From positions 14,201 through 78,200 of the forward strand of contig JBBSWF010000020.1 of assembly GCA_038046365.1 (NCBI GenBank): a stretch of DNA of 64,000 nt, read 5' to 3'. Source of the stretch: Nanobdellota archaeon. GTDB lineage: Archaea; Nanobdellota; Nanobdellia; Woesearchaeales; JAGWAF01. A program made the position numbers and the translations under genes. A model generated the notes under the pieces. It saw nothing but the letters and a program-made list of their open reading frames with translations, did not search any database and had not been told where the DNA came from. Shown here one piece after another: positions 6,204 to 51,794 of the stretch; the first letter of the stretch is position 1, and the number at the start of each line of letters is the position of its first letter.

Positions 6204-6215
6204 GGTATAAAAGCG
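6204..6215 (-). promoter_or_regulatory. TATA-like box (cgcTTTTATAcc on the minus strand) about 27 nt upstream of the NDH-2 ATG. This suggests a leaderless transcript.
   Basis: Read directly from the sequence. The spacing matches the archaeal TATA-to-TSS distance. Confidence 0.4.
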
Positions 6216-6252
6216 TTATGGAACCGAAAACAGTGCAACCGAGCAGGCAATG

Positions 6253-7071
6253 TCAAAGCGAAGAACAATAGTCCATCACAGCCTCCATCAAGACCACATC
6301 AAGTTCCACACGCCGCGGAAGCGCAGTTATCTGAGGGGTCTCTGTGCATACGATATACTTGCAGCCCTCATTTAGCATCCTGCGCTCGAAAGTGCCAAGG
6401 ATCCGAGGGACTGGATTGAAGAGGATTACACCGTTGTCCGCCTTCTCTTTCTCTATGACGTCCGCGCGATGGATAGGATAATATCTTGATGCGACATCGA
6501 CTAGGGTGCGGCAGAATGGAAGGGAATCAGGGCTGTCACAGTAGACATAGAAACACTCCATGCCTTCCTCATAATCCTCGTGGATCGAATGCATGAACGA
6601 GATATCCTTTCCATTGAGGCAGCCCAACAACAAGGCACATTCTCGCTCAAGAGGATCGCTATCGAACGAGCGGTTCAAGTCTACACCACGAAGATTGTAA
6701 CGATGGATACCCCTATCGAAACCTGACGGATTAGCGATCGGGAACATCAAGACGCGAAGGTCTGGCCATCGGGAGGGATCATACTCTTCAAGGAACCGCA
6801 GCGACGCCCACGGGCCAGCGATCTCAGTGCCATGCACGCCAGCGTTGAAGAGGACAGTCCTTGAGACGTGAGGGCGATCGTTTAGAATGACCGAGACGAC
6901 AGGATACTTCAGAGTATCATCGGCGTAACCGAGTATATCCAATCCTATGGCCTTGCTATGACATACAGAGTGCAGACGGTGCAGATAGGGTTCCAGCCGG
7001 CCTCCAACTTCATCAGCCCTGGTGAAACAGGACCAGGTCAAGTCGTCCAGACCAGCGTATGGCTTTTCCAT
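6253..7071 (-). CDS. Succinylglutamate desuccinylase/aspartoacylase (M14-like zinc peptidase) family protein.
   Basis: Zinc-binding HxxE is present (GVHGTEIAGPWA). The length and architecture fit the AstE/AspA family. Confidence 0.6.
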   Translation of the reverse strand: MEKPYAGLDDLTWSCFTRADEVGGRLEPYLHRLHSVCHSKAIGLDILGYADDTLKYPVVSVILNDRPHVSRTVLFNAGVHGTEIAGPWASLRFLEEYDPSRWPDLRVLMFPIANPSGFDRGIHRYNLRGVDLNRSFDSDPLERECALLLGCLNGKDISFMHSIHEDYEEGMECFYVYCDSPDSLPFCRTLVDVASRYYPIHRADVIEKEKADNGVILFNPVPRILGTFERRMLNEGCKYIVCTETPQITALPRRVELDVVLMEAVMDYCSSL

Positions 7072-7148
7072 GACCTGGCGGATGGGCTCTTGAAATAAAA
7101 GGGATATGGAAAAAGGCGGAAAGGATACGGACGCCTAGAAAGGTTTAA

Positions 7149-9574: not shown

Positions 9575-10018
9575 GTGCGGATCATCGAGAAAGGGTATGC
9601 CCCATACAAGGACATATGGGCAAGCCCTGTCGGAGTAAGCCACTACAGATCTGACCTGTCTGACAAAAAAGACCATCGGCCAGCAGGCCTGCAATACACT
9701 CTGTTCGAATTGATCGAGAAAGAGACCACGGAACCACGGTGCGAGGTCTTTCCGATGCATCTTGACCTGGATATAGAAGGTACTCATGTGCGATTCGCTG
9801 ACATGAAAAAAAGCTTCATGGATGGACGCACCGAATATCAATTAAGGATAGTGCAGGAAGATAAAAATGGCAGACTATACATCACCGACCCACGGGTACC
9901 AGAGTATAGTGAGAATGCATTGCGGGAATACGCGATGGAACACGCTAACCGCAAGAGGAGATCACCTGAGAACTCCATAGACCAAACTGACAGGATCCCG
10001 GCTCCGGACAAACATTAA
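9575..10018 (+). CDS. Hypothetical protein.
   Basis: Clean 147-aa ORF with average composition and no recognisable motif. Confidence 0.4.
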   Translation: MRIIEKGYAPYKDIWASPVGVSHYRSDLSDKKDHRPAGLQYTLFELIEKETTEPRCEVFPMHLDLDIEGTHVRFADMKKSFMDGRTEYQLRIVQEDKNGRLYITDPRVPEYSENALREYAMEHANRKRRSPENSIDQTDRIPAPDKH

Positions 10019-10555
10019 TATACCCCCTCTTCCGGTGACGTAACCGTTTGCGGTACGGTCAGATGACACAATAGTCTACTGACTGAAAAACGATCAGCCA
10101 ACGACGGACTAGTCCTTCGTCGGGCGCGGTGTGGTAACTGCGCGGGCGTGATTGAACGGGGGTAGACCTGTGAAGGGTGGTAGAACAAAGTCCAAACTGT
10201 CTAGCTCTGCCAGCTATTGCGCTAGTAGCTCTTGCGTGAAAGCGAGCGAAGCGAGATTGAGCGATCTGAGTAGAATTCAGTATGGTCGCTCTGAACCGGA
10301 TGACTCGATTAGTATCGAGTATATTCAGGGGTTTGGAAACCAGGATAGCTTAGTTTTATCTGTGGCGGATATGGACTCTTTGTCAAGCATAGATACTTCT
10401 CTTAATCTAACCAGAGGATCGGGGTCCTTTGATGAAAAAGGCGCGATCACCAACAGCCCTCATAATCATATCTCACTATCAAACGCGGAGACTGAAACGA
10501 ATTCTTCGGACCGCAAACAACCAAGGACAGTCTCCTCAACGAAAAAGAAGGATAG

Positions 10556-13500
10556 ATGGAAAGCCAAGACAGCTTCCAAGCCCGACAAGTAGACGAAAAC
10601 CTGGCAGAATGGGCAAGAAGCCAGGATGGAGGTAGCGAAAGCTATGCATTTACACCACCTTCTGCCCCGATCGCCTGGAGATCCCACCATAGGGAACACC
10701 TCGCAGAGGTCTTAGGCGCACAGCCAAAGGATCCGAGCAAGCTGCAGCTGGCCATCGGCGTGGTCGTGCCGCTGATGTTCATCATCGCGACAATAATGAC
10801 CCTCGCGGACCCGAGCATAACAGGACTTGTCGCTTATTCAGAGCGATCCATAATCGAACTGAACGCGACGATAACAAGCTCGAGGAATATCACGATCGGG
10901 CTAAATGACATACCAATGAGAGTGAGAGTAAGCGGAATGGCGACAGGAAACGTGTCCATCATCCATAGACCCAGCGGCAGGAAAATGTTCGAGACAGCAA
11001 GCCCAGGGATTGTGGCTCTGACAGAAGAATGCGGACAAGCCTGCGCAAGACGCGACTATTCTAGCTCGGCGGACCCGCCAAGATACAACCTCACACTCGA
11101 GGTCTCTATCGGAGAAGGAGCTGAACTGAACATAACAACTATCGGATACACTTTCACACCCGCGAACAGACAGCCATTGTTCAACAGGAAACTCGCCAAC
11201 CTCACAGCCACTGCCAAGACAACTACGAAAATAGACCTAGCAGGATACGCGAAAGACCCGGACAACGACTCCATCACTTTCATCGCCACGAACTCGATGC
11301 TGGCAGACATCGAGGTGCATGGAAGCATCCTCCAGATAATCCCCAAGAAAAATGCGACAGGCCCCACAAGGTTCGTCGTATACGCATCTGACACGAAATC
11401 GATATCAAGAGTGACAGTCAACCTCGATATCAGACAAGACATTGGCACGGACGAGGCCGCAGCGATAAACGCGCCTTTTGAAATAGAACCCGACCTAGTA
11501 GAACAAACACAACTGGAAGACGGGACGCCAGTCATAATCGAGCTTGAGGAGCCGCAAGAAGCTCTCGGAGAACTGATCAAGGCCGCAAAGATAAAAGAAG
11601 AACAGACCCTGCTTGACACAAAAACAAGCGATGAGAGAGTGAACGTGAAGAGAAGATACAAGAACATCCCGGCAGTATCCGCAGTCATGACACAGGAAGG
11701 CCTGCAAGACCTGCTGTCGAACCCGAACATCAAAGCAATCAGAGCAGACGAAGAGTTCTCAATTAGCATCACAGACGAGCTCAAACAGGTCCACGCAGAG
11801 CCGCAAGCAAGGATCATGCCCGACGGGACGCGGCTAGATGGCGAAGGCAAGACAGTATGCCTCATCGACACAGGAGTCCAGACCACCCATCCAGACCTAT
11901 TAGGAAAGGTGATCGGAGGATACAACTCAATAGACAGCCCCGAATATAGCTCGACAGACATATCTGATGACAACGGACACGGGACAGCAGTGGCAGGAAT
12001 AATCGCCGCGCCAGACGGTATCGCGCCGATGGCAATGATATTCCCAGTGAAGGCGTGCGGCAAGACCGGTTCCTGCAAAGCAAGCGCGATATTATCCGCG
12101 ATAGATGCATGCATCGGGGCAAGATCGACTCATAACATAACAGTCATCTCAGGAAGCTTCGGCGATGGATTAGCTCATACTGCAGGCGACTGCCCTGACA
12201 CGCTTGGAGCCGCGATTACCGCTGCGCACGACGCCGGGATGACCATGACATTTGCAGCTGGAAACAACGGTTACCTCGACGGAGTGAACTACCCTGCCTG
12301 CGACGGGCGAGCGATATCAGTAGGATCATCCACGCAATACGACACACCGACTAGCTTCACCAACAAAGGATCAAAGACAGACCTTCTCGCACCAGGACAG
12401 AATGTCACAACCACCATGATAGGCGGAGGATGGGGAGAAGCAAGCGGGACAAGCATCAGCACGCCATTTGCGGCAGGAGCGGCCATGATAATCGCCCAGG
12501 GGCTAGAGCTCACAGGACGGGGTGCCACCCCAGAGGACGTGAAGAACCTGCTGATGAACTACAGCGCCAAAGCGATGGGAATGCCAATGCTCGACCTGTC
12601 GGCAGCGATAGCCGCAGCGACAGGGAAGAGCGAGACACCGATTCCCATCAATGGGACACCGACAAGCCCGGCTGGAAACGAAACACAGACAATCGCAGCG
12701 GAACAACACGCAGGATCCATCCAAAAACCACCGGAGAACCAGCGGAGACTAACAGGCGGCGCCAAACCAACACCATCTTTCACACCAGCCTTGGGGAAAA
12801 CAAGCGCGCTAGTCACGAGACAGATCGAGACAGAAGGAAAAGCCGACGTCATAATCGAACTTGAACTGCCTAACATCACAATGAAAGATGGATTCGGCGT
12901 GATGTCACTCAACCAGGGCAGAGCGATGACAAAAGATGGACTTAAGGACGCAGTCGGCAGGGCACAGAGATCATCGCTAGAAGGGATGAAGACTGCCTTG
13001 AACGGAACATTCGGGACGTTATCATCTGATGAAGACATATCGATCACCGACCAGCCAGAATACTTGCCATTCATCACAGGGACCGTGAGCGCGAGCGGGC
13101 TTGAGAAACTGAAATCAACCCGATCCGTGAAAGCGATACACCCCAACCTCATCAGAGAACTGCTGCCCACAATAATAGACCCAGAGCCAAAGGCTTCATT
13201 TGACATCAGCCTCCCGACTATAGGGGCATTATACGCAAGAGATACACTAAACTACACCGGACTTGGCGTGAAAGTAGCGATAATCGACTCAGGAGTGGAT
13301 TACACGCATCCAGACCTTGGAGGATGCACACGCGACCAATTCCTCGCAGGAACATGCGCGAAAGTTCCGACTGGATACGCTTTTTGCAATGCCACCAACT
13401 GCGGAAGAGACCCCGACCCAATAGACCAATTCGGACACGGAAGCCACATCGCAGGGATCATCGGAGGCACTGGAGTAGGCGGATTAAAAGGCATAGCGCC

Positions 13501-38434: not shown

Positions 38435-41266
38435 ATGAGTAATATGCCTAAAGCGATTATCCCTCCAGAACAGAACGAGACGGAATCGCAGACCCGGATC
38501 ACCAAAATCAATGTCTCCCTTGAAGAGGCTGGCTGGAAAGTTCGAAGCAAGGCCATGGTCTGGGAAGAGGCAGATACCTTACAGTCAGATTTCAGGAGCG
38601 GAAACTACCTCACCCATGATGACACTTATGAAAATGAACAACAAAGCCGTTACGCAGATTATCTCCTCCTTGACTCAAAAGGTAATCCGTTGGCGGTAAT
38701 AGAGGCAAAAAAGACGACCAAGGACCCAGTAACCGGGCAAAAACAGGCAGAGGGCTACGTTGACGATATCAAGAAACAGACCGGGAAAGACCTGTTTATC
38801 TTCTTCACAAACGGTTATGAAATCTGGTTCTGGAACAGGCCATATGAGAACCCGCGATTAGTGAAGGGATTCCATAGCCGAGAAGACCTTGAGAACATCC
38901 GATTCCAGAACGAATCAAAGAAGGAGCTGTCTGACATACCTATCAGGACTGAAATCGTCAACCGCCCTTATCAGATTGAAGCCGTGAAAAGAGTCCTTGG
39001 AGGAATACAAAAAGGCAAAAGAAAATTCCTGATAGTCCAAGCCACTGGAACCGGGAAGACAAGGGTCGCGATGGCCTTGATTGATATATTGAAACGCTCG
39101 CATCGCGCAGAGCGGATCCTATTTCTCGCAGATAGAAAAGCCCTGAGAGACCAGGCATTTGATGAAGGGTTCAAAGAATGGTTGCCTGAAGAATCCCGGT
39201 CAAAGATATTTGGAGGAAGCCTTGATAAAAACGCGAAACTCTACGCTTCTACAATCCAGACATTTATGGAATGTTACAAGGAGTTCTCTATCGGCGCTTT
39301 TGACCTGATAATCTCTGACGAAGCACATAGGTCGATCTATAACAAATGGAAGGAGGTGTTCACGTATTTTGACGCAATCCAGATCGGTTTGACCGCAACC
39401 CCCTCAGATCTTATCGAAAAAGACACGTTCAAGTTCTTCCAGTGTGATGGGCAGCAACCGACCTTCCTGTATACATACGACCAAGCGAAAAAAGAAGGGT
39501 GGCTATGCGACTTCAAGCGATGGGAAGCGCAGACACATTTCCAGATCGAAGGAGTCAAGCCATCAGACATCCCAGACTCGATAAAGGCAAGACTAGCAGA
39601 GCAGGGCCTTGACGAGGAGGATATGGCCTGGGATGGGTCCTCCATAGAAAAAGAAGTGGCGGTGGTCGGCACGAACGAGGCTATCGTCAAGGAATTCATG
39701 GAGAACTGCATCAGAGACGAGACTGAAACACCTGCAAAAACTATAATATTCGCTGTGTCAAAAAAACATGCGAAAAGGATCTGGGAAGCTTTCGAGCGTC
39801 TCCATCCAGAATATAAAGGCAGACTTGCCCGGATAATAACCTCGGATGACAGCAGCGCGCAAAAGTTGCTGAAAGATTTCAAGACCGAAACGTACCCGCG
39901 GATAGCCATCTCGGTAGATATGCTAGACACAGGCGTAGACATCCCAGAGGTATGCAATCTAGTATTCGCCAAACCGGTCTTCTCCAAGATAAAATTCTGG
40001 CAGATGATCGGACGTGGCACAAGGAATGACGAAGCATGCAAAAAGAAAGAATGGATGCCTGGAGGTAAAAAAGAGTATTTCCTGATATTCGATTTCTGGA
40101 ACAATTTCGAGTTCTTCCAGATGAAGCCAGCTGGAAGAGAAGAAAAACCGACTGAAGCGATCGCTACCCGAATATTCAGGACACGGATCGAACAATTGAA
40201 GGATTTCATAAGCCAGGGAGATAAGAAGAGAGCCGACGAGGTCAAGAAGAGAATAAATCAAGACATCACGAGCCTTCCGCTGAAATCCGCATCATTGAAA
40301 GAACATATGAACGATATCGAAACCGCACTATCAGACGACTTCTGGGATAACGTAGGGATCGAACCAGTTAAATTCCTATCAGAGAGGATCAGACCATTGA
40401 TGAGGTTCCAGACAGATATCAATCTCAACAAGGCATCGTTCATACTGAAATGCGAGAGGCTCGGACTGGCAAGCCTACGCTCAGAAGAGCAAGGCATGGA
40501 AGAGCTAAAGGAGGGTATTGTGGCAGACATAAACCTCCTGCCAAAAACTCTCGACAAGGTCAAGGACAAGAAAGAGATGATATCCCGGGCGGTCAGCAAA
40601 GAATTCTGGGAAAAAGTCTCATATGATAACGCACAAGAGTTGATACGAGAACTCGGACAGGTAATCACATACAAGAGGAAAGAGGTCAAGAAGACTATCG
40701 TGCTGGACATAGATGATGTCGTCAAGCAACGCCGACTCATCGAGTACGGCCTTGAACCAAAACAAGAGTATGTCGATACCTATATCGAGAAAGTCGAGAG
40801 CCATATCAAGGAATTGGCGAGATCTGACACCACGATCAAGAAGATAGAAGCCGGCGAGCCGCTCGATGAAGAAGACCTCACCAAACTCGAAAAAAAGCTC
40901 AACAGCCCAGAGCTTTTCATAACCGAAGAAGTCATGCAGAAAGCGTATGAAAAGAGCAAAGGGACGCTGGTGCAATTCATAAAAAAGATACTCGGCCTCT
41001 ATGAGTTCCCTGACCCCAAGAAGCGGATCGAAGAAGAATTCAAGACCTTCATGATCGCGAACAACCAGTCTTACAACGCGGACCAGATCAATTTCTTACG
41101 GGCCATACAGACAGTCTTCGCAAAGAAGAAGCACATAGAATACGCCGACCTGTTCGACCCGCCATTCACGAACTTCGGGACACAGGCACCGGTACCCCTA
41201 TTCTCCAAAGAACAGCTCATCGACATAATCAAGCTATGCGATGAACTGGAAAATGAAGTTTTTTAG
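38435..41266 (+). CDS. hsdR: Type I restriction enzyme R subunit (HsdR), superfamily-2 helicase/nuclease.
   Basis: N-terminal [19 protein letters not shown]. Motif I is [10 protein letters not shown] and motif II is a DEAH-like ISDEAHRS. The length is 943 aa. Confidence 0.85.
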
Positions 41267-41336: not shown

Positions 41337-41756
41337 ATGACTTCACAAGAGTGGACCACCATATCTGTAAAGGTGACCAAGCAACAGAAGCAACTCATCG
41401 AACGGATATGCGAAAAGAATGGCAAGTCGGTCAACAAGCTTCTGAGCGGAATGATAGAACGGGAACTCAAACCTATGAGTGACCCCTCGTGTTTCCCAGA
41501 AAACCAGGGGATACCCCTAATCGGCGAGAACCGATTCTCCTACCTGCCTGAGAAAGACCAGTTCATCTGGAAGATAGATCTTGGCGTCCACGGATCCTCA
41601 ATACTCAGCGAAGAAGTCACGCCCGCATACCTTAAGAGCCTGTCCTCTGCAGTAGCGGAAGGCATCAAGCAGAGAGAGGATTTCAACGATAAACTGAATA
41701 GGGGCGCGGTCGTCCCGAAGAAACTCATCAAACTTGGGGTGAAACGCCGATGTTAG
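41337..41756 (+). CDS. Ribbon-helix-helix (CopG/Arc-like) DNA-binding protein embedded in the R-M operon. It is a candidate controller.
   Basis: N-terminal TISVKVTKQQKQLIERICEKNGKSVNKLLSGMIEREL fits a strand-helix-helix pattern. It overlaps the hsdM start by 7 nt. Confidence 0.5.
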   Translation: MTSQEWTTISVKVTKQQKQLIERICEKNGKSVNKLLSGMIERELKPMSDPSCFPENQGIPLIGENRFSYLPEKDQFIWKIDLGVHGSSILSEEVTPAYLKSLSSAVAEGIKQREDFNDKLNRGAVVPKKLIKLGVKRRC

Positions 41757-43234
41757 CGCCTGAACTGAAATCAAGGATCAACAAACTCTGGGACAAATTC
41801 TGGGCAGGAGGACTGGCAAACCCGCTGACAGCGATAGAGCAGATATCATACCTCATCTTCCTCCGACGGCTCGAAGACCTGGACGACCAGGAAGCAAAGA
41901 GAGCCGAGGCCCTGAAACATATCCACGCGTCGGTCTTCAAAGGCCACGAAGACTGCCGATGGTCGCACTGGAAACACTACAACGCTGAAGATATGCTGGT
42001 CCACGTCAGAGATAAGGTGTTCCCATTCCTGAAGAACATACAGAAGGGAGAGGACGGCGAGTTCTCAAGGCAGATGCAGGACGCGATATTCCTGATACCC
42101 AAACCATCACTGTTACAAGAAGCGGTCAGTATAGTAGACGAGCTGAACATCACCGCACGGAACCAGGACACACAGGGAGACATCTACGAATACCTACTGT
42201 CTGAACTCAACCAGGCCGGAAAAGCCGGGCAATTCAGGACCCCTCGCCATATAATCAGGATGATGGTAGAGATCGTGAATCCACAGTTTGGAGAGAAAAT
42301 ATGCGATCCGGCGTGCGGAACAGCCGGCTTCCTGATAAACGCCTATCAGCACATCCTGAAGATCAACACATCGCCCGAGACTGTCAAGTATGATGCAGAA
42401 GGCGTGGCATACAATCTTGTCGGGGACAAGATAACCGACAAGAAACAGTGGGAGGCTCTGCGACGGAATACATTGTATGGGTTCGATTTCGACCCGACGA
42501 TGGTCAGGATCGCCTCCATGAATATGATACTGCACGGGATAGAACACCCCAACATCAAGCGGTTCGACACGCTATCCAAGGCATTTGAACACATAGCCAC
42601 ATATGACGTGATACTCGCCAACCCGCCATTCACGGGAAGCATCGACTCCTCTGACATAAGCGCGGAGTTCAAGCTGAACACCACAAAGACCGAACTGCTG
42701 TTCTTAGAGCTGTTCCATAACCTCCTGGAGATCGGCGGACGATGCGCGGTGATAGTCCCGAACGGAGTGCTGTTTGGATCATCCAAGGCACACGTCCAGA
42801 TAAGAAAACTGCTCCTTGAGAAGTGCCAGATGGAAGCGGTGATCTCCATGCCATCAGGGGTATTCAAGCCCTATTCCGGCGTAGGGACCGCAGTTATAGT
42901 GTTCACGAAAGGCGGACAGACCAAAGACGTCTGGTTCTACGACATGAAATCAGACGGGTTCTCCCTCGATGACAAGCGAGATCTCATAGACGGGAAAGGT
43001 GACATACCAGACATCGTCGAACGATTCAAGAACAAGCAGAGCGGAGAGAACAGCATAATCGTCTCATTCGAAGATATCAGGAGCAATGACTATAACCTGT
43101 CCATATCTCGGTATAAAGAAGTCAAACACGAAGAGGTCGTCTATGAAAAACCTGAGGCTATCATCGAACGGGTGATGAAGAGAGAAGAGGAGATCACTAA
43201 AGAGCTTGCCGAACTCAAACGGATTATAAAATGA
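41750..43234 (+). CDS. hsdM: Type I restriction-modification N6-adenine DNA methyltransferase (HsdM).
   Basis: N-terminal ISYLIFLRRLED, motif I DPACGTAGFL and catalytic NPPF (LANPPFTG). Confidence 0.85.
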   Translation: MLAPELKSRINKLWDKFWAGGLANPLTAIEQISYLIFLRRLEDLDDQEAKRAEALKHIHASVFKGHEDCRWSHWKHYNAEDMLVHVRDKVFPFLKNIQKGEDGEFSRQMQDAIFLIPKPSLLQEAVSIVDELNITARNQDTQGDIYEYLLSELNQAGKAGQFRTPRHIIRMMVEIVNPQFGEKICDPACGTAGFLINAYQHILKINTSPETVKYDAEGVAYNLVGDKITDKKQWEALRRNTLYGFDFDPTMVRIASMNMILHGIEHPNIKRFDTLSKAFEHIATYDVILANPPFTGSIDSSDISAEFKLNTTKTELLFLELFHNLLEIGGRCAVIVPNGVLFGSSKAHVQIRKLLLEKCQMEAVISMPSGVFKPYSGVGTAVIVFTKGGQTKDVWFYDMKSDGFSLDDKRDLIDGKGDIPDIVERFKNKQSGENSIIVSFEDIRSNDYNLSISRYKEVKHEEVVYEKPEAIIERVMKREEEITKELAELKRIIK

Positions 43235-44568
43235 CACTCAAAGAGACAGAAACACTGGAACTCAAAAAATCCACAGCAGAACTAAAAGACGGCATAATCT
43301 CAATAGTTGCCATTTTGAATAAACACAACAAAGGAATACTCTATTTTGGCGTAAAAAACAATGGCGAACCAATAGGGCAATCCATATCAGATGCTACACT
43401 CAGAGAGATCTCCCAAACAATATCCAGTAACATAGAACCAAAAATATACCCAGAAATCCATACCGAAAGCTTAAACGATAAAAAATGCATAAAATTGTCA
43501 TTCGAAGGCCATGACCAACCATACCTAGCATATGGTAGGGCCTACACTAGGGTCGCTGATGAAGACAAACAACTATCAGCCAAAGAACTAGAAAACCTGA
43601 TAATGCGCAAAAACAGCGAACACCTAAATTGGGATGGAGAACCATGCAAAACAGCAAAAATCACAGACGTAAACACCAACCGAATCAAAACATTCCTAAA
43701 AACAACAGGGAAGAAATACGACTCTGTACAAAACGTGCTAGAAAAACTCCACCTACTAAAAGGATCTTACCTGACCAACGCCGCAATAGCACTATTCGGC
43801 AAAGATCCAGACAAATACTTCATGAATGTCTATCTTAGATGCGCCACCTTCGCCACAGAAGACACCACAGTGCCACTTGACATGCAAGACTTCCATGGCG
43901 ATGTATTCAGCTTGATAGACAAAGCAGAATCGTACATACTCAAAAATATCCACATAGGTATGAGATTAGAAGGCTTACGAAGAGTTGATGTGCCTGAGAT
44001 CAACAGAGATGCTATCCGAGAAGCGATTTTGAATGCATTTTGCCATAGAGACTATAAAAGAATGGACTCGGTGGATGTCGCCGTGTTCAAAGACAAGGTA
44101 GAGATACGAAGCCCAGGACTATTAATAGACAATCTGACCATAGAAGAAATAAGATCGAAACAAGTATCTGTAAGAAGGAATCCACTGATCGCACGCATCT
44201 TCAAGGAAGGAAACCTAATCGAAAGCTGGGGAACAGGCATCAAGAAGATGATGACCCTAGAACCCACCCTGCAAATGGAGGAGTTAGGCTCTTACTTTAT
44301 CGTCAGATTTCTTAGACCGAGAGGGGCAGAACATTCAGGAAAGGTCCTAGAAAAGGTCCTAGAAAAGGTCCTAGAAAAGGTCACTAAAAACCAGAAGAGA
44401 ATCCTCGAAGAAATATCAAAAAACAACACCCTAACAAGCAGAGAGCTAGCCAAAATCGTAGGAATCTCCGAGAGAAAAATCAGGGTAAACATCGCCAAAC
44501 TCAAGACCAAAGGACTACTAAGAAGAATAGGACCTGACAAAGGCGGACACTGGGAGATCATCAAATGA
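43231..44568 (+). CDS. AlbA_2/Schlafen-like divergent AAA (putative DNA-binding) domain protein with a C-terminal wHTH. It is an R-M-associated accessory gene.
   Basis: N-terminal ETLELKKSTAELKDGIISIVAILNKHNKGILYFGVKNNGEPIGQ matches the AlbA_2/AAA-4 N-terminus. The C-terminal wHTH is TLTSRELAKIVGISERKIRVNIAKLKTKGLL. It is ATGA-coupled to hsdM. Confidence 0.6.
   Translation: MTLKETETLELKKSTAELKDGIISIVAILNKHNKGILYFGVKNNGEPIGQSISDATLREISQTISSNIEPKIYPEIHTESLNDKKCIKLSFEGHDQPYLAYGRAYTRVADEDKQLSAKELENLIMRKNSEHLNWDGEPCKTAKITDVNTNRIKTFLKTTGKKYDSVQNVLEKLHLLKGSYLTNAAIALFGKDPDKYFMNVYLRCATFATEDTTVPLDMQDFHGDVFSLIDKAESYILKNIHIGMRLEGLRRVDVPEINRDAIREAILNAFCHRDYKRMDSVDVAVFKDKVEIRSPGLLIDNLTIEEIRSKQVSVRRNPLIARIFKEGNLIESWGTGIKKMMTLEPTLQMEELGSYFIVRFLRPRGAEHSGKVLEKVLEKVLEKVTKNQKRILEEISKNNTLTSRELAKIVGISERKIRVNIAKLKTKGLLRRIGPDKGGHWEIIK
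44341..44382 (+). repeat. In-frame 12-nt tandem repeat (aaggtcctagaa, 3.5 copies) encoding (KVLE)n within the AlbA_2 gene.
   Basis: Read from the sequence. Confidence 0.7.
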
Positions 44569-44768
44569 AACAATCTGATCCGCATAAGGCAGTGTGTAGG
44601 GTATGCAACAAGAAGTCCAAGGAATCTCCTTGCGAGAACTGCGCATATCTGATAAAAAATGGCGCAAGCGAAGAAACCATCAAAAAGATGCTAGGAGACA
44701 AACGAGTCAACAAGATATGGGAAGAGAACAAAGAAACTACGGATTCAACACATTCTGCGAAGGCATAA
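44565..44768 (+). CDS. Small zinc-ribbon-like protein (CxxC..CxxC), translationally coupled (ATGA) to the AlbA_2 gene.
   Basis: CRVCNKKSKESPCENC motif with the start overlapping the upstream stop. Confidence 0.45.
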   Translation: MKQSDPHKAVCRVCNKKSKESPCENCAYLIKNGASEETIKKMLGDKRVNKIWEENKETTDSTHSAKA

Positions 44769-44770
44769 AC

Positions 44771-44887
44771 ATGACACTGGATATAATCATGCCGCTGCTG
44801 GACAAAGAATCACAAAAGAAAATCAAGGCAAAAATACTTATGATGATGGAATCGAGATACATGCGCAAGGAGAAGAAGAGAAAATGA
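44771..44887 (+). CDS. 38-aa micro-protein MTLDIIMPLLDKESQKKIKAKILMMMESRYMRKEKKRK. A diverged paralog exists at 54745..54861.
   Basis: Protein-level conservation with a second 38-aa ORF despite diverged DNA. It is ATGA-coupled to the downstream gene. Confidence 0.45.
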   Translation: MTLDIIMPLLDKESQKKIKAKILMMMESRYMRKEKKRK

Positions 44888-45522
44888 ATACTACCCCTAT
44901 TGCTCTAAGTAAGAATTTTTATGTTCTCACTAACGATCAGACTCATCAGGTATTTGACAAAAGAGATAAAAAATCTCACCCTCTTACAGAATTAGAGACC
45001 AAGATTATTATCTATGAAGATAGAGTTAAACATTGGTTTTTGCAGATAGCGGAGAATCTGAAGAATGATAATGAAGCTGGATTTGTAATTCTTTCCATAG
45101 CAATAGCTTACATAGAGGGAAACCAGCAGTTTAGGGATGGAAAGAGTAGTGCTCCTCAGTTTAAAAATGGAAAGCGTATTGCCGGGAAGTCAGAGAAGTT
45201 CTTTATTAAGGGGATGAGAAGAATTTTTGACAAAGAAGATGTACCAAAGCCCATACTTAAAAGTTATTATGGTCAAATACGATGCGGACTTTTTCATGAT
45301 GGGATGACTAAGAAAAATGTAGTTATTTCCTGTGAGTTCCCAAATCCGATCAGCTATACTGGAAGCCAAGATGGACAGAATGGTGTGATTATGATAAATC
45401 CGCATAAGTTTCTCGATAAGCTCACAGAAGATTTTGAGGGATATATTTCTGAACTGAAAGCCGGTTCTGATACTGAAATTATTAAGAATTTTGAAACAAG
45501 GTGGCAATTAGAAAATGCATAA
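44884..45522 (+). CDS. Hypothetical 212-aa protein encoded between the hsdM module and hsdS, in markedly AT-rich DNA.
   Basis: Clean ORF, ATGA-coupled upstream, overlapping the hsdS start by 8 nt. No recognisable motif. The local GC is far below the window average. Confidence 0.5.
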   Translation: MNTTPIALSKNFYVLTNDQTHQVFDKRDKKSHPLTELETKIIIYEDRVKHWFLQIAENLKNDNEAGFVILSIAIAYIEGNQQFRDGKSSAPQFKNGKRIAGKSEKFFIKGMRRIFDKEDVPKPILKSYYGQIRCGLFHDGMTKKNVVISCEFPNPISYTGSQDGQNGVIMINPHKFLDKLTEDFEGYISELKAGSDTEIIKNFETRWQLENA

Positions 45523-46705
45523 ATTACCTAAAAATTGGGAATGGAAAAAATTAGGGAATATCTGTACGAGTAAAGCCCAATATGGTTCTGGTGCTAAAAA
45601 GGCAGATTTTGATGGTAAAGTGAGGTATATAAGAATTACAGATATTGAGGATAATGGAAATTTAAAAAATGATGAATTTGTCTCTCCCTCTTTGACAGAG
45701 GAGGAGTGCTTTTTAGAAAAAGATGATTTACTTTTTGCACGTTCCGGTTCAGTTGGTAGAACTTATCTTCATTCCAAAAATGATCTAAAGTACCAATTTG
45801 CGGGTTATCTTATCAGGTTCAAAATAAACCCCAAGATTGCTGATGCGAAGTATGTTTTTTATATAACTAAGTCAAAATACTACTTAAGTTGGGTTGAATC
45901 TTTAAAACGAAATGTAACAATCTCAAACATAAATGCAAAAGAGTATTCTTCGTTAGAAATCCCCGTCCCCCCTCTACCCGTCCAAAAGGAGATAGTCGCA
46001 ATCCTCGAACGAGCAGAAGCACTCAAACAAAAAAGAGAACAAGCCAACAAAGACACCAACACAATAATCCAAAGCCGGTTCTACGAGATGTTTGGTGATC
46101 CGATAAAATCTGATAAATGTGAATCTTTACCAATTTCTGCGGTTACCAGCTTTGTTTCTTATGGGTTCACACGCCCTATGCCTCATTTGGACAAAGGAAT
46201 TCCCATTATAACCTCAAAAAATGTTTTTTCGGGGTTTATTAACTATGATCAAGTGGACTTTACTGATGAAAAATCCTTTTCGGAATTATCAAAAAAGGAT
46301 CGCCCGATAATGGGCGATATCTTATATACAAAGGATGGCAGAATTGGGGAAGCTGCATTAGTGAAGATAAACTCCCCTTTTTGTATAAGTCAGGCAGTGG
46401 CTATACTAAGACCTATCCCAAACAAGATCAACCCGCTTTTCTTTGAGTCCTTACTAAATTCCGACAAGTTCAAAAAAGTGGTTAACTCAATGGCTTATGG
46501 CGTTGCATTGAAACATATCTCAATAACAAAACTAGGGGCATTAAACATCGTTGTCCCCCCCATTGAGCGTCAAAATCTATTTGCTTCATTCGTTGAGATG
46601 GTATGTTCACTAAAACGAAAGCAGAATGATGTGAACTCGGAGATTAATGTACTTTTCGACGCGCTGATGCAGAAGGCGTTCAATGGGGAGTTGTCTTCGG
46701 GGTGA
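45515..46705 (+). CDS. hsdS: Type I R-M specificity subunit (HsdS) with two target-recognition domains.
   Basis: Central conserved LEIPVPPLPVQKEIVAILERAEALKQ and distal conserved LNIVVPPIERQNLFASFVEMV...NSEINVLFDALMQKAF repeats. Confidence 0.85.
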   Translation: MHKLPKNWEWKKLGNICTSKAQYGSGAKKADFDGKVRYIRITDIEDNGNLKNDEFVSPSLTEEECFLEKDDLLFARSGSVGRTYLHSKNDLKYQFAGYLIRFKINPKIADAKYVFYITKSKYYLSWVESLKRNVTISNINAKEYSSLEIPVPPLPVQKEIVAILERAEALKQKREQANKDTNTIIQSRFYEMFGDPIKSDKCESLPISAVTSFVSYGFTRPMPHLDKGIPIITSKNVFSGFINYDQVDFTDEKSFSELSKKDRPIMGDILYTKDGRIGEAALVKINSPFCISQAVAILRPIPNKINPLFFESLLNSDKFKKVVNSMAYGVALKHISITKLGALNIVVPPIERQNLFASFVEMVCSLKRKQNDVNSEINVLFDALMQKAFNGELSSG

Positions 46706-46713
46706 GCGAATAA

Positions 46714-47119
46714 ATGACGATCCTCTACATCGATACAAACATCCTCCTGAACGCCGCCTTAGAGGAAAAGAACCTGACCGGCAAAGACCTAGCGACCCCC
46801 GCCTCCCGCCTATTCCTCGAAGCGCTCACCTGCAAATACACACTCCTTATATCATCATGGACTATCAAAGAAATGATGAGAAAGATACCAATCGAACACA
46901 TCCGGTCAACGATGGCGATATTGAACCCAAAAATCAGACAATGCCCATATGACCAACAAGATGAAGCGTCAGCCCGCGCCAGATCAAAGGATAATTTTCC
47001 TGATGCATTACATATAATAATCGCCGAAAAAAAAGGCGGATTACATAATCACTCGAGATCTGCATGATTTTCTTAAGATTGGGACACGGATCCCGATAAG
47101 AACGCCGGAGTCACTTTAA
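46714..47119 (+). pseudogene. PIN-domain (VapC-like) gene interrupted by a +1 frameshift in an A8 homopolymer (47027–47034). The downstream frame restores the ...IITRDLHDF C-terminal PIN motif.
   Basis: N-terminal ILYIDTNILLNAAL (first acidic PIN residue). After the A-run the +1 frame reads DYIITRDLHDFLKIGTRIPIRTPESL and stops at 47117–47119. Confidence 0.55.
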
Positions 47120-48301
47120 TCCAACTTGCTCGAAGAGCCACTCTTGGAATCTCTTATGGCCCAGTTCCTTCTCTTTTCGAGTCAGTTCCGCTATTCCCGC
47201 TTTTTTCTCTTCAGGAGATAATTCTCTCGCAGAACCCTGCAAAACCTTAAGTTTCCGACCGATCTCATCGTCAGGGAGCTCATATTTAGGAAGGGCCTCA
47301 TATAATGAGTCCATAGATTCCAAACACGTCTCCTTCAACTCATTCAACCGTTCGAAGAAATAGTCTTTCAACAGTTCCTTGTCGAAAAAACGTGTCAGTG
47401 AATCATATAATTCATATGTCGCCACTAACTGCCAAACGTTGTTGAAATTCTCAATCACAATAGGCTTCGATTGGTTGATCTCATCAACTGAGCCATGCCT
47501 TAGAATCTGTAACACGCTTGAACAGAAATCATCCACCAAAGCGATTATCCATGAATTAAACTCCTTTCTCTCCAGATTGAATATGAAATTGTTTAGAGCC
47601 TCACGAATCTTGTTCTTATTCTTAGGATCATTATAATCGAAATAGGTCAAATAGTATGATAAATCCTCCTTTACCAGATAGAGAGGTTTCTTCTTCTTCT
47701 CATATTGATGTCTTCTAATCTTGTAGGAGGCATCACAGCACCCACAATATTCCTTGCATACCCCTCTAATGTATCCCACCTTCGGAGTCTCATCGATCGG
47801 AGGCCCATAATCCTGATCCGAATCAAATGGGAGCATAAGGATCTCTCCGTACAGATACCAGCCTCTAGGAACCTCAGGGTGAAGTTCTTCAATCACATCC
47901 ACTGCGATCTTCTGCATCAATGTCTTCGACAAAGGTTTGTCACAGATAGAAGGCCAGACTTTGAGTACTGTCGCATAAACCTTCTTGATACGCTCTTTGG
48001 ACTCCGCGCTTAACGGAATCGAAAACAGGGTGTCTGATTTGTAAGACCTCATCTTCTGATAGACTACTTTTCCGTTCTCCTCTAATCGCCGAAGCACATC
48101 TATCTTAACAAAAACTTCAACATGCCGCTTGACACTATCGTAACTGACACCTGCCTCTTTGGCGATGTCCTGTATGCTCATAGATCTACCTGCGTGCGAA
48201 GAAAGAACCTCCAAAATTTTCTGCGACACCTCACCTGCTGCGCGCTTGCCCATCGGTCTCGGATGATTTCGCAAGCGGTAGTATATATACCTTTTCATCA
48301 A
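47111..48301 (-). CDS. Hypothetical protein with an N-terminal HTH.
   Basis: HTH SIQDIAKEAGVSYDSVKRHVEVF, then a long helical C-terminal region. Confidence 0.5.
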   Translation of the reverse strand: MMKRYIYYRLRNHPRPMGKRAAGEVSQKILEVLSSHAGRSMSIQDIAKEAGVSYDSVKRHVEVFVKIDVLRRLEENGKVVYQKMRSYKSDTLFSIPLSAESKERIKKVYATVLKVWPSICDKPLSKTLMQKIAVDVIEELHPEVPRGWYLYGEILMLPFDSDQDYGPPIDETPKVGYIRGVCKEYCGCCDASYKIRRHQYEKKKKPLYLVKEDLSYYLTYFDYNDPKNKNKIREALNNFIFNLERKEFNSWIIALVDDFCSSVLQILRHGSVDEINQSKPIVIENFNNVWQLVATYELYDSLTRFFDKELLKDYFFERLNELKETCLESMDSLYEALPKYELPDDEIGRKLKVLQGSARELSPEEKKAGIAELTRKEKELGHKRFQEWLFEQVGLK

Positions 48302-48891: not shown

Positions 48892-49233
48892 TTAAGGCGA
48901 TGGATCTCCATAACACACATGAAAATGAAGATGCTTTGAATCCTGATATTTTCCTAGGTTAGTAAGTATTCTACAGGATCCATGTTCATTGTTTACTTTC
49001 TTCGCGACCTGTTTGATTACTTCCAAGATCTCAATCACAAGGGGACTATCAGAAATAGTGAGAAGTGATTCGATATGTTCCTTTGGAACAACGACGATGT
49101 GAACAGGCCAGTGAGGCTTAGTATGGTAATATGCCAGAACATTGTCAGTCTCTAATATTTTATTAACCGGTGTTTTCCCACTGAACACTTCATCACAATA
49201 AAAATCATCAGTCATGGAATCCGTTATTCGCAT
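48892..49233 (-). CDS. HIT family hydrolase.
   Basis: Histidine triad HLHFHV, plus the HTKPHWPVHIVVVP segment. Confidence 0.65.
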   Translation of the reverse strand: MRITDSMTDDFYCDEVFSGKTPVNKILETDNVLAYYHTKPHWPVHIVVVPKEHIESLLTISDSPLVIEILEVIKQVAKKVNNEHGSCRILTNLGKYQDSKHLHFHVCYGDPSP

Positions 49234-49384: not shown

Positions 49385-50218
49385 ATGGACCAGGAATCAG
49401 CTTTAGTGGTCTTCCAGGACAAGAGGATAAGGAGGACGTGGCAAGAAGGAGAATGGTGGTTCTCAATAGAAGATATAGTCTATGCGTTGACTGATTCTAA
49501 GGACCCAAAACAGTACATCCAGAAGATGAAGCAACGGGATGAGCCCCTATCCGAAGGGTGGGTACAGATTGTACATACCCTTCCTATGCAGACCGAAGGC
49601 GGCGTCCAACTGATGAACAGCGTAAATGTCAAAGGAGCGTTTAGGGTCATCCAGTCCATCCCATCTAGCAAAGCCGAACCATTCAAGATATGGCTTGCCA
49701 AAGTAGGATATGAGCGGGTCCAGGAGATCGAGAACCCGGAACTGGCACAGGAGAGGATGAAGGAACTCTACGAACAGAAAGGATACTCAAAAGAATGGAT
49801 CGAGAAGAGATTGAGAGGCATCGCAGTACGGCAGGAACTGACAGGCGAATGGAAACAGAGAGGAGCGGACGAGAACAAGGAGTATGCCATACTCACCAAT
49901 GAGATCAGCCAGGCGACCTTCGGAAAGACAGTCGATGAATACAAACAGCTCAAAGGCCTGAACAAAGAGAACCTGCGCGACCACATGGACGACCTTGAAC
50001 TGATATTCACGATGCTAGGGGAAAAGGTAACGACCGAGATCACAAAGAAAGACGACGCGCAAGGATTCCCTGAATGCAAAGACGCCGCGCACCGAGGCGG
50101 ACGGGTCGCAGGCAGCGCCAGAAAAGACGCCGAGAAAGAGATAGGCAGGGATATCTCGACACCAGAGAACTACCTCGACGCGCCAGAGAAAGAGAAAAGG
50201 AAGAGGATAGGGAAATAG
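49385..50218 (+). CDS. DinD / Bro-N-like (DNA-damage-inducible protein D family) protein.
   Basis: N-terminal FQDKRIRRTWQEGEWWFSIEDIVYALTD is a Bro-N-like pattern. The central region resembles E. coli DinD (for example GYSKEWIEKRLRGIAVRQELTGEWKQRGA). Confidence 0.5.
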   Translation: MDQESALVVFQDKRIRRTWQEGEWWFSIEDIVYALTDSKDPKQYIQKMKQRDEPLSEGWVQIVHTLPMQTEGGVQLMNSVNVKGAFRVIQSIPSSKAEPFKIWLAKVGYERVQEIENPELAQERMKELYEQKGYSKEWIEKRLRGIAVRQELTGEWKQRGADENKEYAILTNEISQATFGKTVDEYKQLKGLNKENLRDHMDDLELIFTMLGEKVTTEITKKDDAQGFPECKDAAHRGGRVAGSARKDAEKEIGRDISTPENYLDAPEKEKRKRIGK

Positions 50219-51041: not shown

Positions 51042-51794
51042 ATGGAATGCATACCAAAAGATAAGCTCAAAGAGATCGTGAATGAACAGGAATTATCTGA
51101 ACTGCTCCTATACCCCGCGATCTTCCCAAACGCTGAATTCATCCTCGAACATGAATTCCCGGAATATCGCGTGATTGACGCGTATTGCGTCAACCCTGAA
51201 TGCAAATGCGAAGAGGTAGCATTGTATTTCACGAAAAAGCAAGGCGATGAGCTTAAACACGAATTTTCCTTCGTGTTTGAATATATACATCATGACGTGC
51301 TCGCCTGTGACGATATCCCAGATCATGAAGCCGCCGAGATAATAAAAAAGATTCCCACTACAACAATTGACGATATCAAGAAGAGACGCGAGCAACTCAG
51401 ACTTGCTGTACTCGAAGAGATGTCGATCAAACTAGAGAGCCATAAAAACACAGCGAAAAGGAAATTAGGCCGTAATGAACTCTGCCATTGCGGCTCAGGC
51501 ATCAAGTACAAGAAATGCTGCCTGAAGATGGACATCGAGAAGAACGGCAAACCCATGATGATCCTGGACCCTGAATCAGGTGAGGAAGACAGCTTCTGGC
51601 AGAAAGGCTCGTTCGCCCAATCAGTCAGCAAGGAGGATATGGAGAGAAAAAACCGCACGATCCACATGAGCCATGATGAAGATATGGACTTCGACTGCAA
51701 GAAGTGCGACACTAAGATATCCGCGCACAACAAGGACTGGCATGACGGCATGTGCGACGAGTGCTTCGATAAAACCTACTTCAGGGACCGATAA
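51042..51794 (+). CDS. SEC-C motif (metal-binding) domain protein with a C-terminal zinc ribbon.
   Basis: NELCHCGSGIKYKKCC is the SEC-C motif. CKKCDTKISAHNKDWHDGMCDEC is the C-terminal zinc ribbon. Confidence 0.6.
   Translation: MECIPKDKLKEIVNEQELSELLLYPAIFPNAEFILEHEFPEYRVIDAYCVNPECKCEEVALYFTKKQGDELKHEFSFVFEYIHHDVLACDDIPDHEAAEIIKKIPTTTIDDIKKRREQLRLAVLEEMSIKLESHKNTAKRKLGRNELCHCGSGIKYKKCCLKMDIEKNGKPMMILDPESGEEDSFWQKGSFAQSVSKEDMERKNRTIHMSHDEDMDFDCKKCDTKISAHNKDWHDGMCDECFDKTYFRDR

Follow-up and report, generated by a model that had tools for sequence, protein, structure and literature searches.

An AT-rich, very probably mosaic stretch of an archaeal Type I restriction-modification operon carries a member of an undescribed protein family with a candidate E/R/H active site

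New specificities of Type I restriction-modification (R-M) systems arise when hsdS genes recombine within their conserved regions and so shuffle their domains. Defence functions are over-represented among the genes found embedded in such systems (bioRxiv 10.1101/2024.01.29.577857). R-M systems have links to at least 16 clades of HEPN proteins, for which PrrC serves as the model case: in the pairing of PrrC with EcoprrI, the RNase is masked by the Type I complex and is released when a phage disables the complex (PMC3710099). Here we analyse 64,000 nucleotides (nt) of contig JBBSWF010000020.1 from a Nanobdellota archaeon (the whole stretch, 'the window'), in which a Type I R-M operon on the + strand houses an AT-rich stretch comprising most of hsdS and, immediately upstream of it, an unannotated gene of 212 amino acids (aa), which, like its family, we call FAM. 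We find that the AT-rich stretch is in all likelihood of mosaic origin, and that FAM is a real, selected gene of a large undescribed family, one clade of which has become established between hsdM and hsdS in Type I operons. The best explanation that we can offer as a whole, a mosaic operon stretch carrying FAM as a latent effector of RNase type, has a modest balance of probability in its favour.

HsdR, HsdM and HsdS were matched by Pfam and PADLOC models, and the three subunit genes lie on one strand, tightly spaced or overlapping. Neighbouring genes of the operon overlap by 4–8 nt or lie a few bases apart, so that the operon looks like a single transcription unit; FAM and hsdS overlap by 8 nt, and FAM is translationally coupled to hsdS. 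The coordinates and gene calls of a preliminary description, made from the sequence alone, hold for both genes (a 212-aa open reading frame (ORF) at 44884–45522 and an hsdS with two Methylase_S domains at 45515–46705). The window is identical to a contig of the Hainich aquifer, and its genome was binned as Nanoarchaeota (DPANN). For comparison we used fetched loci (L numbers), above all L001, a sister Type I locus with gene order hsdR-141aa-hsdM-FAM-hsdS from another sample of the same Hainich aquifer, in a genome of about 36% GC. The boundaries of the hsdS modules, namely two target-recognition domains (TRD1 and TRD2) and two conserved regions, were taken from comparison with L001 and L048–L051. 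The features on which the argument turns are the following, in window coordinates.

38435–41266, + strand: hsdR, 943 aa (Pfam ResIII, EcoEI_R_C and HSDR_N; PADLOC REase_I, E = 3e-138)
41750–43234, + strand: hsdM, 494 aa (Pfam N6_Mtase and HsdM_N; PADLOC MTase_I, E = 5e-174)
44884–45522, + strand: FAM, the 212-aa gene, of a large unannotated family (homologues, AlphaFold2 (AF2) model, ratio of nonsynonymous to synonymous divergence)
45115–45117, + strand: codon of FAM E78, an acidic residue in the second long predicted helix (alignments)
45280–45297, + strand: FAM R133-C-G-L-F-H138, an Rx4H motif (sequence, alignments, predicted secondary structure)
44960–45900, + strand: recombinant tract common to the window and L001 (third-position identity, synonymous divergence, blastn)
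45515–46705, + strand: hsdS, 396 aa (Pfam Methylase_S, twice)
about 45515–45950, + strand: hsdS TRD1
about 45950–46099, + strand: hsdS central conserved region
about 46100–46530, + strand: hsdS TRD2
about 46530–46705, + strand: hsdS distal conserved region

The GC content of the window is 0.495. The composition of hsdR, whose C-terminus is of EcoEI_R_C type, is native-like (GC 0.465; GC at third codon positions (GC3) 0.57), as is that of hsdM (GC 0.502; GC3 0.646). FAM has a GC content of 0.355 and a GC3 of 0.315, and hsdS has a GC content of 0.377 and a GC3 of 0.368; GC3 thus falls from 0.65 in hsdM to 0.32 in FAM and 0.37 in hsdS. The low GC described over FAM and the first half of hsdS is present (0.341 for 44884–45950; 0.319 for TRD1, 45515–45950), as is the renewed drop in the second variable half of hsdS (0.384 for 46090–46560). 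The two conserved regions of hsdS, said to return to the window average, both rise towards it (0.475 for the central region, 45950–46090), but the distal region falls short (0.438 for 46560–46705). Windowed GC and GC3 are far from uniform. Hardly any segment of equal length in the window is as low in GC as 44884–45950 (0.02% of such segments, which makes it essentially the minimum), the full stretch 44884–46560 is matched by 0.5% of windows of its length, and the kilobase 45001–46000 has the lowest GC of the 64 kilobases of the window. AT skew and GC skew both shift across the tract. The wider region at 43–55 kb is also somewhat low in GC (0.41–0.46), and FAM genes are lower in GC than the adjacent hsdM in five of the five loci measured.

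Comparison with L001 indicates where the AT-rich stretch came from. Protein identity between the window and L001 is 69.6% for hsdR, 79% for hsdM, 71% for FAM and 57% for hsdS. Nucleotide identity runs the opposite way, at 67% for hsdR, 70% for hsdM, 78% for FAM and 86% for the first 585 nt of hsdS. We compared the two loci codon by codon, scoring third-position identity at identical amino acids and estimating divergence by the Nei-Gojobori method. In hsdR and hsdM, third positions are just 0.25–0.5 identical and the proportion of synonymous differences is 0.94–1.0, which is saturated. From about 44960 to about 45900, third positions are 0.7–0.98 identical, except in one internal patch within FAM (45109–45258) that is saturated (0.36–0.51). 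Nucleotide identity peaks at 97–98% in TRD1 (45590–45815), and blastn aligns the two loci at 82.6% identity over 44993–46099. Synonymous divergence (dS) is 0.27 in TRD1, about 0.6 in the FAM segments 44959–45108 and 45259–45519, and 0.9 in the central conserved region; in TRD2 and the distal conserved region synonymous sites are saturated. The GC3 of the tract (0.22–0.34) matches the L001 genome and not the window (0.6–0.7), so that the tract passed from a low-GC lineage into a genome of about 50% GC. The tract covers the 3' four-fifths of FAM together with TRD1, and its left breakpoint, at about 44960, lies inside FAM: a FAM gene was already present there, and the tract overwrote most of it. 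We conclude, from these sequence comparisons, that a recent recombination tract of low-GC origin replaced most of FAM and the TRD1 of hsdS.

These results bear out the proposal that the TRDs were horizontally acquired or shuffled, inasmuch as synonymous divergence from L001 drops from saturation in the flanks to a dS of 0.27 in TRD1, and TRD2 is unrelated. The further proposal that the 212-aa gene arrived on the same cassette stands with a qualification: most of FAM was exchanged together with TRD1, but FAM did not arrive new, as the breakpoint lies inside the gene. The GC dip could in principle owe nothing to transfer and reflect the amino-acid composition of these proteins or a local mutational bias. 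K, N, I, F and Y are abundant in FAM and the TRDs, the GC3 of the central conserved region is raised even in low-GC L001, and in other genomes too FAM genes have a higher AT content than the genes beside them. However, the drop is steepest at synonymous third positions (GC3 0.65 to 0.32), and the dip coincides with low synonymous divergence from a 36%-GC genome where the flanking genes are saturated. The synonymous-site evidence excludes amino-acid composition alone as the cause, and we regard an explanation without transfer as having next to no probability; a mosaic origin of the AT-rich stretch by horizontal transfer is, by the same evidence, very highly probable.

The saturated patch in FAM contains an insertion of about ten residues, PQFKNGKRIAG (residues 90–101; 45151–45186), relative to nearly all homologues. 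The insertion lies between the second and third helices and is modelled as a beta-hairpin, and the patch suggests a further small mosaic piece.

The structure of hsdS accords with exchange by modules. The layout TRD1-central conserved region-TRD2-distal conserved region is confirmed, the conserved regions having 50–72% protein identity across many loci and the two halves of the protein having weak similarity to each other. TRD1 is 93% identical in protein sequence to that of L001 and 90% identical to that of L048. TRD2 is unrelated to the TRD2 of L001 (14–26% amino-acid identity) and has no close relative among the HsdS proteins of the fetched loci. When hsdS was aligned with its homologues for TRD boundaries, as the preliminary description had advised, similarity to L001, L048, L050 and L051 was found to break off sharply in every case where the central conserved region ends, at about 46099. 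Loci with other upstream cargo, and even fused methylase-specificity proteins, contain relatives of TRD1 at 54–93% identity. Those at 54–60% identity lie inside proteins of about 800 aa that also match HsdM (L052, 2353–4893; L054/L055, 3645–6098; L056, 894–3323), which implies that the recognition domain circulates in fused methylase-specificity enzymes too. We conclude that TRD2, likewise AT-rich, has a separate origin, and that the conserved regions of hsdS are the joints of exchange.

A compositional anomaly and TRD shuffling are known, textbook phenomena. As in classical hsdS domain shuffling, TRD1 and TRD2 have differing histories, the breakpoints lie in or at conserved regions, and loci with another TRD2 or other upstream cargo have a TRD1 that is 90–93% identical in protein sequence. 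Unlike in classical shuffling, the exchanged tract runs upstream of hsdS into the adjacent accessory gene, and the exchange spans a 14-point GC gap between lineages. A phase-variable hsdS shufflon was considered and rejected: tblastn and self-blastn within the window revealed no second hsdS copy and no repeats, and the window differs from such systems in containing no extra hsdS copy, inverted repeat or recombinase. What the locus offers is a clean case, in which tract boundaries, direction of transfer (low-GC donor to 50%-GC genome) and relative age (dS 0.27 against saturated flanks) can be read from two loci of one aquifer.

The main use of this study lies in the FAM family itself, which combines about 900 clusters, no model in the libraries, a confident predicted structure and, in one clade, a fixed place before hsdS. 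FAM has no match in Pfam, NCBIfam, PADLOC-DB v2.0.0 (5027 models) or PHROGs. A word search returned 71 homologues, a profile search returned 329, and an exhaustive HMMER search defines a family of 901 clusters at 50% identity, with members in DPANN archaea, ANME-1, Omnitrophota, Planctomycetota, Myxococcota, cyanobacteria and Bacteroides, and also on plasmids of Synechocystis PCC 6714 and Bacillus cereus. Annotated members, including the window protein at NCBI, are labelled 'hypothetical protein'. Between FAM and its L001 homologue the ratio of nonsynonymous to synonymous divergence (dN/dS) is 0.12–0.14, which indicates that FAM is under purifying selection. The possibility that FAM is not a real gene was rejected on the basis of dN/dS, family size and the confidence of the structural model. 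Sequence searches of the Protein Data Bank (PDB) with the single FAM protein and two profiles gave only chance-level matches; tblastn of FAM against phage genomes gave no match, and against plasmids gave seven, all 'hypothetical protein' or in records without annotation. An hmmsearch with the family profile over all ORFs of the fetched loci revealed no remote paralogues, and a literature search for the motif strings returned no papers. Sec7 matches in some members (best E = 4e-4, weak and below cut-off) were judged spurious. We conclude that FAM is a genuine gene maintained by selection, one of a large family without annotation; neither the libraries nor the literature that we searched describe this family.

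Although most FAM members are found elsewhere, the association with Type I operons is recurrent. FAM lies immediately upstream of hsdS in eight distinct loci: the window, L057 and L059, and five loci (L001, L003, L006, L009 and L046) in which it sits directly between hsdM and hsdS. Six of the eight are Type I operons in which hsdM was found. FAM lies within a Type I operon, and not directly before hsdS, in L005/L014 and L017, so that its embedding in hsd operons extends to the window and seven loci directly before hsdS and to two more inside the operon. These operons have HsdR subunits of two types, EcoEI_R_C (window, L001 and L005) and T1RH-like_C (L003, L006, L009 and L046), and the FAM junctions are gaps of 2–17 nt or overlaps of 4–32 nt. 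Neighbour joining places the embedded members in a single derived clade plus a small second group. Near-duplicate contigs aside, most members, especially the deeper ones, are solitary and have no recurrent neighbour. Most are not adjacent to hsdM, so that FAM is not a universal subunit; the universal linkage to hsdM that the preliminary description had named as telling against its proposal does not hold. We conclude that one clade of FAM has made the hsdM-hsdS slot its regular place in Type I operons, and that FAM is very likely a recurrent Type I accessory gene.

In sister loci, the hsdM-hsdS slot is filled by other cargo, namely DUF1016/YhcG, DUF3800 or AlbA_2, and such varied cargo fits the published finding that Type I systems frequently harbour embedded genes, many with defence roles (bioRxiv 10.1101/2024.01.29.577857). 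The presence of unrelated cargo in the same slot could mean that FAM is an autonomous selfish or toxin-like gene, with no functional tie to R-M, that uses the slot as a safe, co-transcribed landing site. Solitary members do lie in defence islands and in parts of plasmids where toxin-antitoxin genes abound, and the lower GC of FAM relative to hsdM in all five loci measured is what such a gene would show. The position right before hsdS, however, is strikingly constant and marked by start/stop overlaps across operons with two HsdR families, and the embedded members are one clade under purifying selection; we consider the selfish-gene explanation quite improbable. A conserved small upstream partner resembling an antitoxin (about 70–95 aa, at many solitary loci) was rejected, since these ORFs do not align with one another and form no recurring neighbour family.

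FAM might alternatively be a non-catalytic partner of the specificity or methylase subunits, either helping assembly or damping restriction until a newly acquired specificity is in place. If its role were with hsdS, FAM would be expected to travel with hsdS cassettes, and several observations are of this kind: in the embedded clade FAM invariably precedes hsdS immediately and is coupled to it; the exchange in the window took in FAM and TRD1 together; the second hsdS copy of L057 is preceded by FAM; and one ORF, P0073, fuses FAM in frame to HsdS. But P0073 is a single metagenomic ORF that could be a sequencing error, most FAM members have no R-M neighbour, and the TRD1 relatives in L048 and L049 have other upstream cargo or none, which indicates that TRD transfer needs no FAM. 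Moreover, three residues (E, R and H) that are near-invariant over 132 divergent members look catalytic. A non-catalytic role is therefore, in our assessment, unlikely, if worth keeping in view.

The three residues lead to the candidate active site. E78 is kept in 131 of 132 divergent members, R133 in 131 of 132 and H138 in 132 of 132, and these are the most conserved polar residues of the family. The local motif is R-[C108/N13/H7/S4]-G-L-F-H, position 134 being C, N, H or S. R133-x4-H138 fits the HEPN signature Rx4-6H, and E78, in the second long helix (residues 63–85), supplies the acidic residue that HEPN proteins have in helix 2 upstream of the motif (PMC3710099). The AF2 model of FAM (predicted local distance difference test score 92.4; predicted template modelling score 0.88) has, in order, four short N-terminal strands; two 23-residue helices arranged as a hairpin, with E78 in the second; an insert; a helix (122–133) that ends exactly at R133; a loop with H138; about 30 residues of beta structure; and two C-terminal helices. 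The order of elements in this predicted structure is compatible with the published description of HEPN (PMC3710099). On the strength of conservation and prediction, the chance that FAM is an enzyme with an E/R/H active site is, we judge, about even.

According to the explanation that we favour, FAM would be a latent, metal-independent effector of RNase type that uses E78, R133 and H138 in a HEPN-like Rx4H motif. FAM would be co-expressed with the M2S methyltransferase core, would probably be restrained by the same core, and would fire as a second-line abortive-infection response once a virus disables the restriction enzyme. The translational coupling to hsdS and the one FAM-HsdS fusion ORF hint that FAM may be masked by the R-M complex. 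The more specific claim that FAM is a second-line RNase of PrrC type, which is made by analogy, we advance tentatively, as somewhat short of an even prospect; the N-terminal ABC-type NTPase regulatory domain of PrrC-like nucleases is absent from FAM.

Several results weigh against an RNase effector of HEPN type. At a threshold as loose as E ≤ 1, Pfam HEPN models gave no match to sets of 54 and 132 FAM members. PDB sequences searched with profiles gave nothing, and Foldseek searches of the PDB with the high-confidence model gave nothing at E < 3, although many HEPN structures are deposited there. Foldseek against BFVD returned just two uncharacterised phage proteins (E = 4e-3 and 1e-2). Comparison by hhalign of the FAM profile with the AbiU2 and AbiV domains found fused to FAM was negative, in what was a weak test, since the domains entered as single sequences; a homologue search with the AbiU2 domain returned nothing. 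The approximately 30 residues of beta structure predicted after the Rx4H loop, together with the N-terminal beta segment, are atypical for HEPN. By these searches FAM resembles no accepted HEPN family in sequence or structure; such resemblance is one defining feature of HEPN proteins. In addition, most FAM members are solitary and have no conserved neighbour, so that the family as a whole needs no R-M partner, and the position of FAM N-terminal to HEPN effectors in fusions is the architecture of sensor domains (the N-terminal domains (NTDs) of AbiJ), which suggests that FAM could act as a sensor instead of an effector. We conclude that the membership of FAM in HEPN is not established.

The fusions in question are P0215, in which FAM is followed by a C-terminal HEPN_AbiV domain, and P0077, in which it is followed by a C-terminal HEPN_AbiU2 domain; the FAM motif is kept in both. 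FAM could accordingly be a sensor or adaptor domain, like the N-terminal domains of AbiJ, that recognises a phage cue and activates an effector, this being the C-terminal HEPN domain in the fusions and the restriction complex or a neighbouring gene in Type I operons. Fusion to two different HEPN clades, the same architecture described for N-terminal domains of Abi proteins (PMC3710099), and the failure of every HEPN family model to recognise FAM are all in keeping with such a role. However, there are only two fusions among about 260 sequences; solitary proteins of about 200 aa, which have no conserved neighbour as effector, dominate; and the Rx4H motif is retained in the fusions, which are compatible with catalysis, as tandem HEPN domains are common. 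We rate a sensor role as rather improbable.

It is also conceivable, at a low level of probability, that FAM is the non-HEPN founder of an undescribed enzymatic fold, which accompanies hsdS cassettes and works on the Type I complex or by way of it. FAM might then, for example, restrain HsdR while a new recognition domain establishes, or couple loss of methyltransferase integrity to RNA cleavage. If so, FAM would be a compact ATPase-free module that makes specificity swaps between distant lineages survivable.

The remaining genes of the operon and its immediate downstream neighbour are the following.

41337–41756, + strand: conserved 139-aa ORF between hsdR and hsdM (positional counterpart in L001)
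43231–44568, + strand: 445-aa protein with AlbA_2 (Schlafen-like), HATPase_c_4 and winged-helix domains (Pfam)
44565–44887, + strand: small overlapping ORFs bridging the 445-aa gene and FAM (ORF list, translations and gene calls on the identical contig L010)
46714–47067, + strand: 117-aa PIN-like ORF, 8 nt past the end of hsdS (Pfam PIN_12, E = 0.004, weak and below the family cut-off)

The L001 counterpart of the 139-aa ORF is 141 aa long (L001 6108–6533; 49% amino-acid identity). The N-terminus of the 139-aa ORF has just weak PHROG matches, Arc-like (ribbon-helix-helix) and RelB-like, and the ORF may be a regulator or controller of the operon. The 445-aa gene, which is absent from L001, occupies the site between hsdM and FAM and is coupled on both sides, its start overlapping the hsdM stop by 4 nt; its composition is intermediate (GC 0.413; GC3 0.439). 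The 445-aa protein has weak PADLOC similarity to N-terminal regions of proteins associated with prokaryotic Argonautes (pAgo). Among the small ORFs, one of 67 aa (44565–44768) has a CxxC...CxxC pattern resembling a zinc ribbon, and a lysine-rich ORF of 56/94 aa overlaps it in another frame and ends at 44887, on the FAM start codon. The small ORFs, which may or may not be coding, have no match in Pfam, NCBIfam, PADLOC or PHROGs.

Beyond the operon lie a 396-aa winged-helix protein (47111–48301, minus strand), a HIT-family gene (48892–49233, minus strand) and a Bro-N domain protein (49385–50218, + strand) that is a full-length match to PDC-S13, a candidate defence family of PADLOC (E = 3e-111). 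With the Type I operon, the PIN-like ORF and the winged-helix, HIT and Bro-N genes, the lower-GC stretch of about 12 kb at 43–55 kb looks like a defence island. Proteins with SEC-C motifs recur near FAM genes: one of 250 aa in the window (51042–51794, + strand), about 5.5 kb downstream; one of 428 aa between hsdS and hsdR in L006 (9848–11134); and one in L043 (11776–12456), about 5 kb from the FAM homologue of the Bacillus cereus plasmid. This recurrence may be coincidence. In L045, FAM lies in an island of Type II R-M, EVE and KAP genes. L047 (24–4845, minus strand) contains, beside a FAM homologue, a Type I locus with a CBASS (cyclic-oligonucleotide-based anti-phage signalling system) pair (CD-NTase and Cap15) and a DUF1016/YhcG nuclease between hsdM and hsdS, and integrase and conjugation genes are close by. 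Straight after hsdS, where the window has the PIN-like ORF, L050 has an AbiJ-like gene (6205–7143; AbiJ_NTD4, DUF7014 and Abi_C HEPN) and L001 has a gene of similar size (9786–10712; 308 aa).

FAM can be compared with four kinds of described system. With the HEPN clades linked to R-M systems (DUF4145, Ymh, ApeA, AbiU2, AbiJ and others), FAM shares small size and a mainly helical predicted structure, defence-island and R-M contexts, a helix-terminal R-[C/N/H/S]-x3-H preceded by a helical hairpin that bears an acidic residue, and HEPN clades as fusion partners. FAM differs from these clades in going unrecognised by Pfam HEPN models, in having no PDB match by Foldseek, and in its extra N-terminal beta segment and its beta insert of about 30 residues past the motif. 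With the N-terminal domains of HEPN effectors (AbiJ-NTD1–5, AbiTii and HEPN/Toprim-NTD1), FAM shares a size of about 200 aa, an alpha+beta composition and a position N-terminal to two HEPN clades, and it also occurs alone. FAM differs from these domains in having no Pfam match to AbiJ_NTD, AbiTii or HEPN_Toprim_N, in having an invariant E/R/H set of its own, and in the rarity of its fusions.

PrrC of EcoprrI, an anticodon nuclease in a Type Ic operon, and RloC offer the comparison on which the favoured explanation is built. Like these, FAM is an accessory gene embedded in, and apparently co-transcribed with, hsd genes; it has a conserved Arg/His (Rx4H) signature with an upstream acidic residue; and, as proposed here, it would be a latent RNase freed when the R-M system is neutralised (PMC3710099). 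FAM differs in comprising just 212 aa with no ABC-ATPase/NTPase domain (no Pfam or NCBIfam match), in lying between hsdM and hsdS, and in having no sequence or Foldseek similarity to any HEPN protein. It is, moreover, found mostly in DPANN archaea and uncultured bacteria, and in most cases is not linked to R-M. If FAM is a second-line RNase, the PrrC principle extends to DPANN archaea and to a minimal, ATPase-free protein; if it is not an RNase, FAM is an unexplored partner of Type I specificity subunits. The fourth comparison, with the 'guilt-by-embedding' candidates of PADLOC (PDC/HEC), concerns context: FAM matches no model of PADLOC-DB v2.0.0 and so is absent from the candidates in that release, but, like them, it is nested in Type I R-M systems in the same orientation and carries no mobility or housekeeping annotation. 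FAM is thus a reasonable new 'embedded' defence candidate, and one that comes with an active-site hypothesis.

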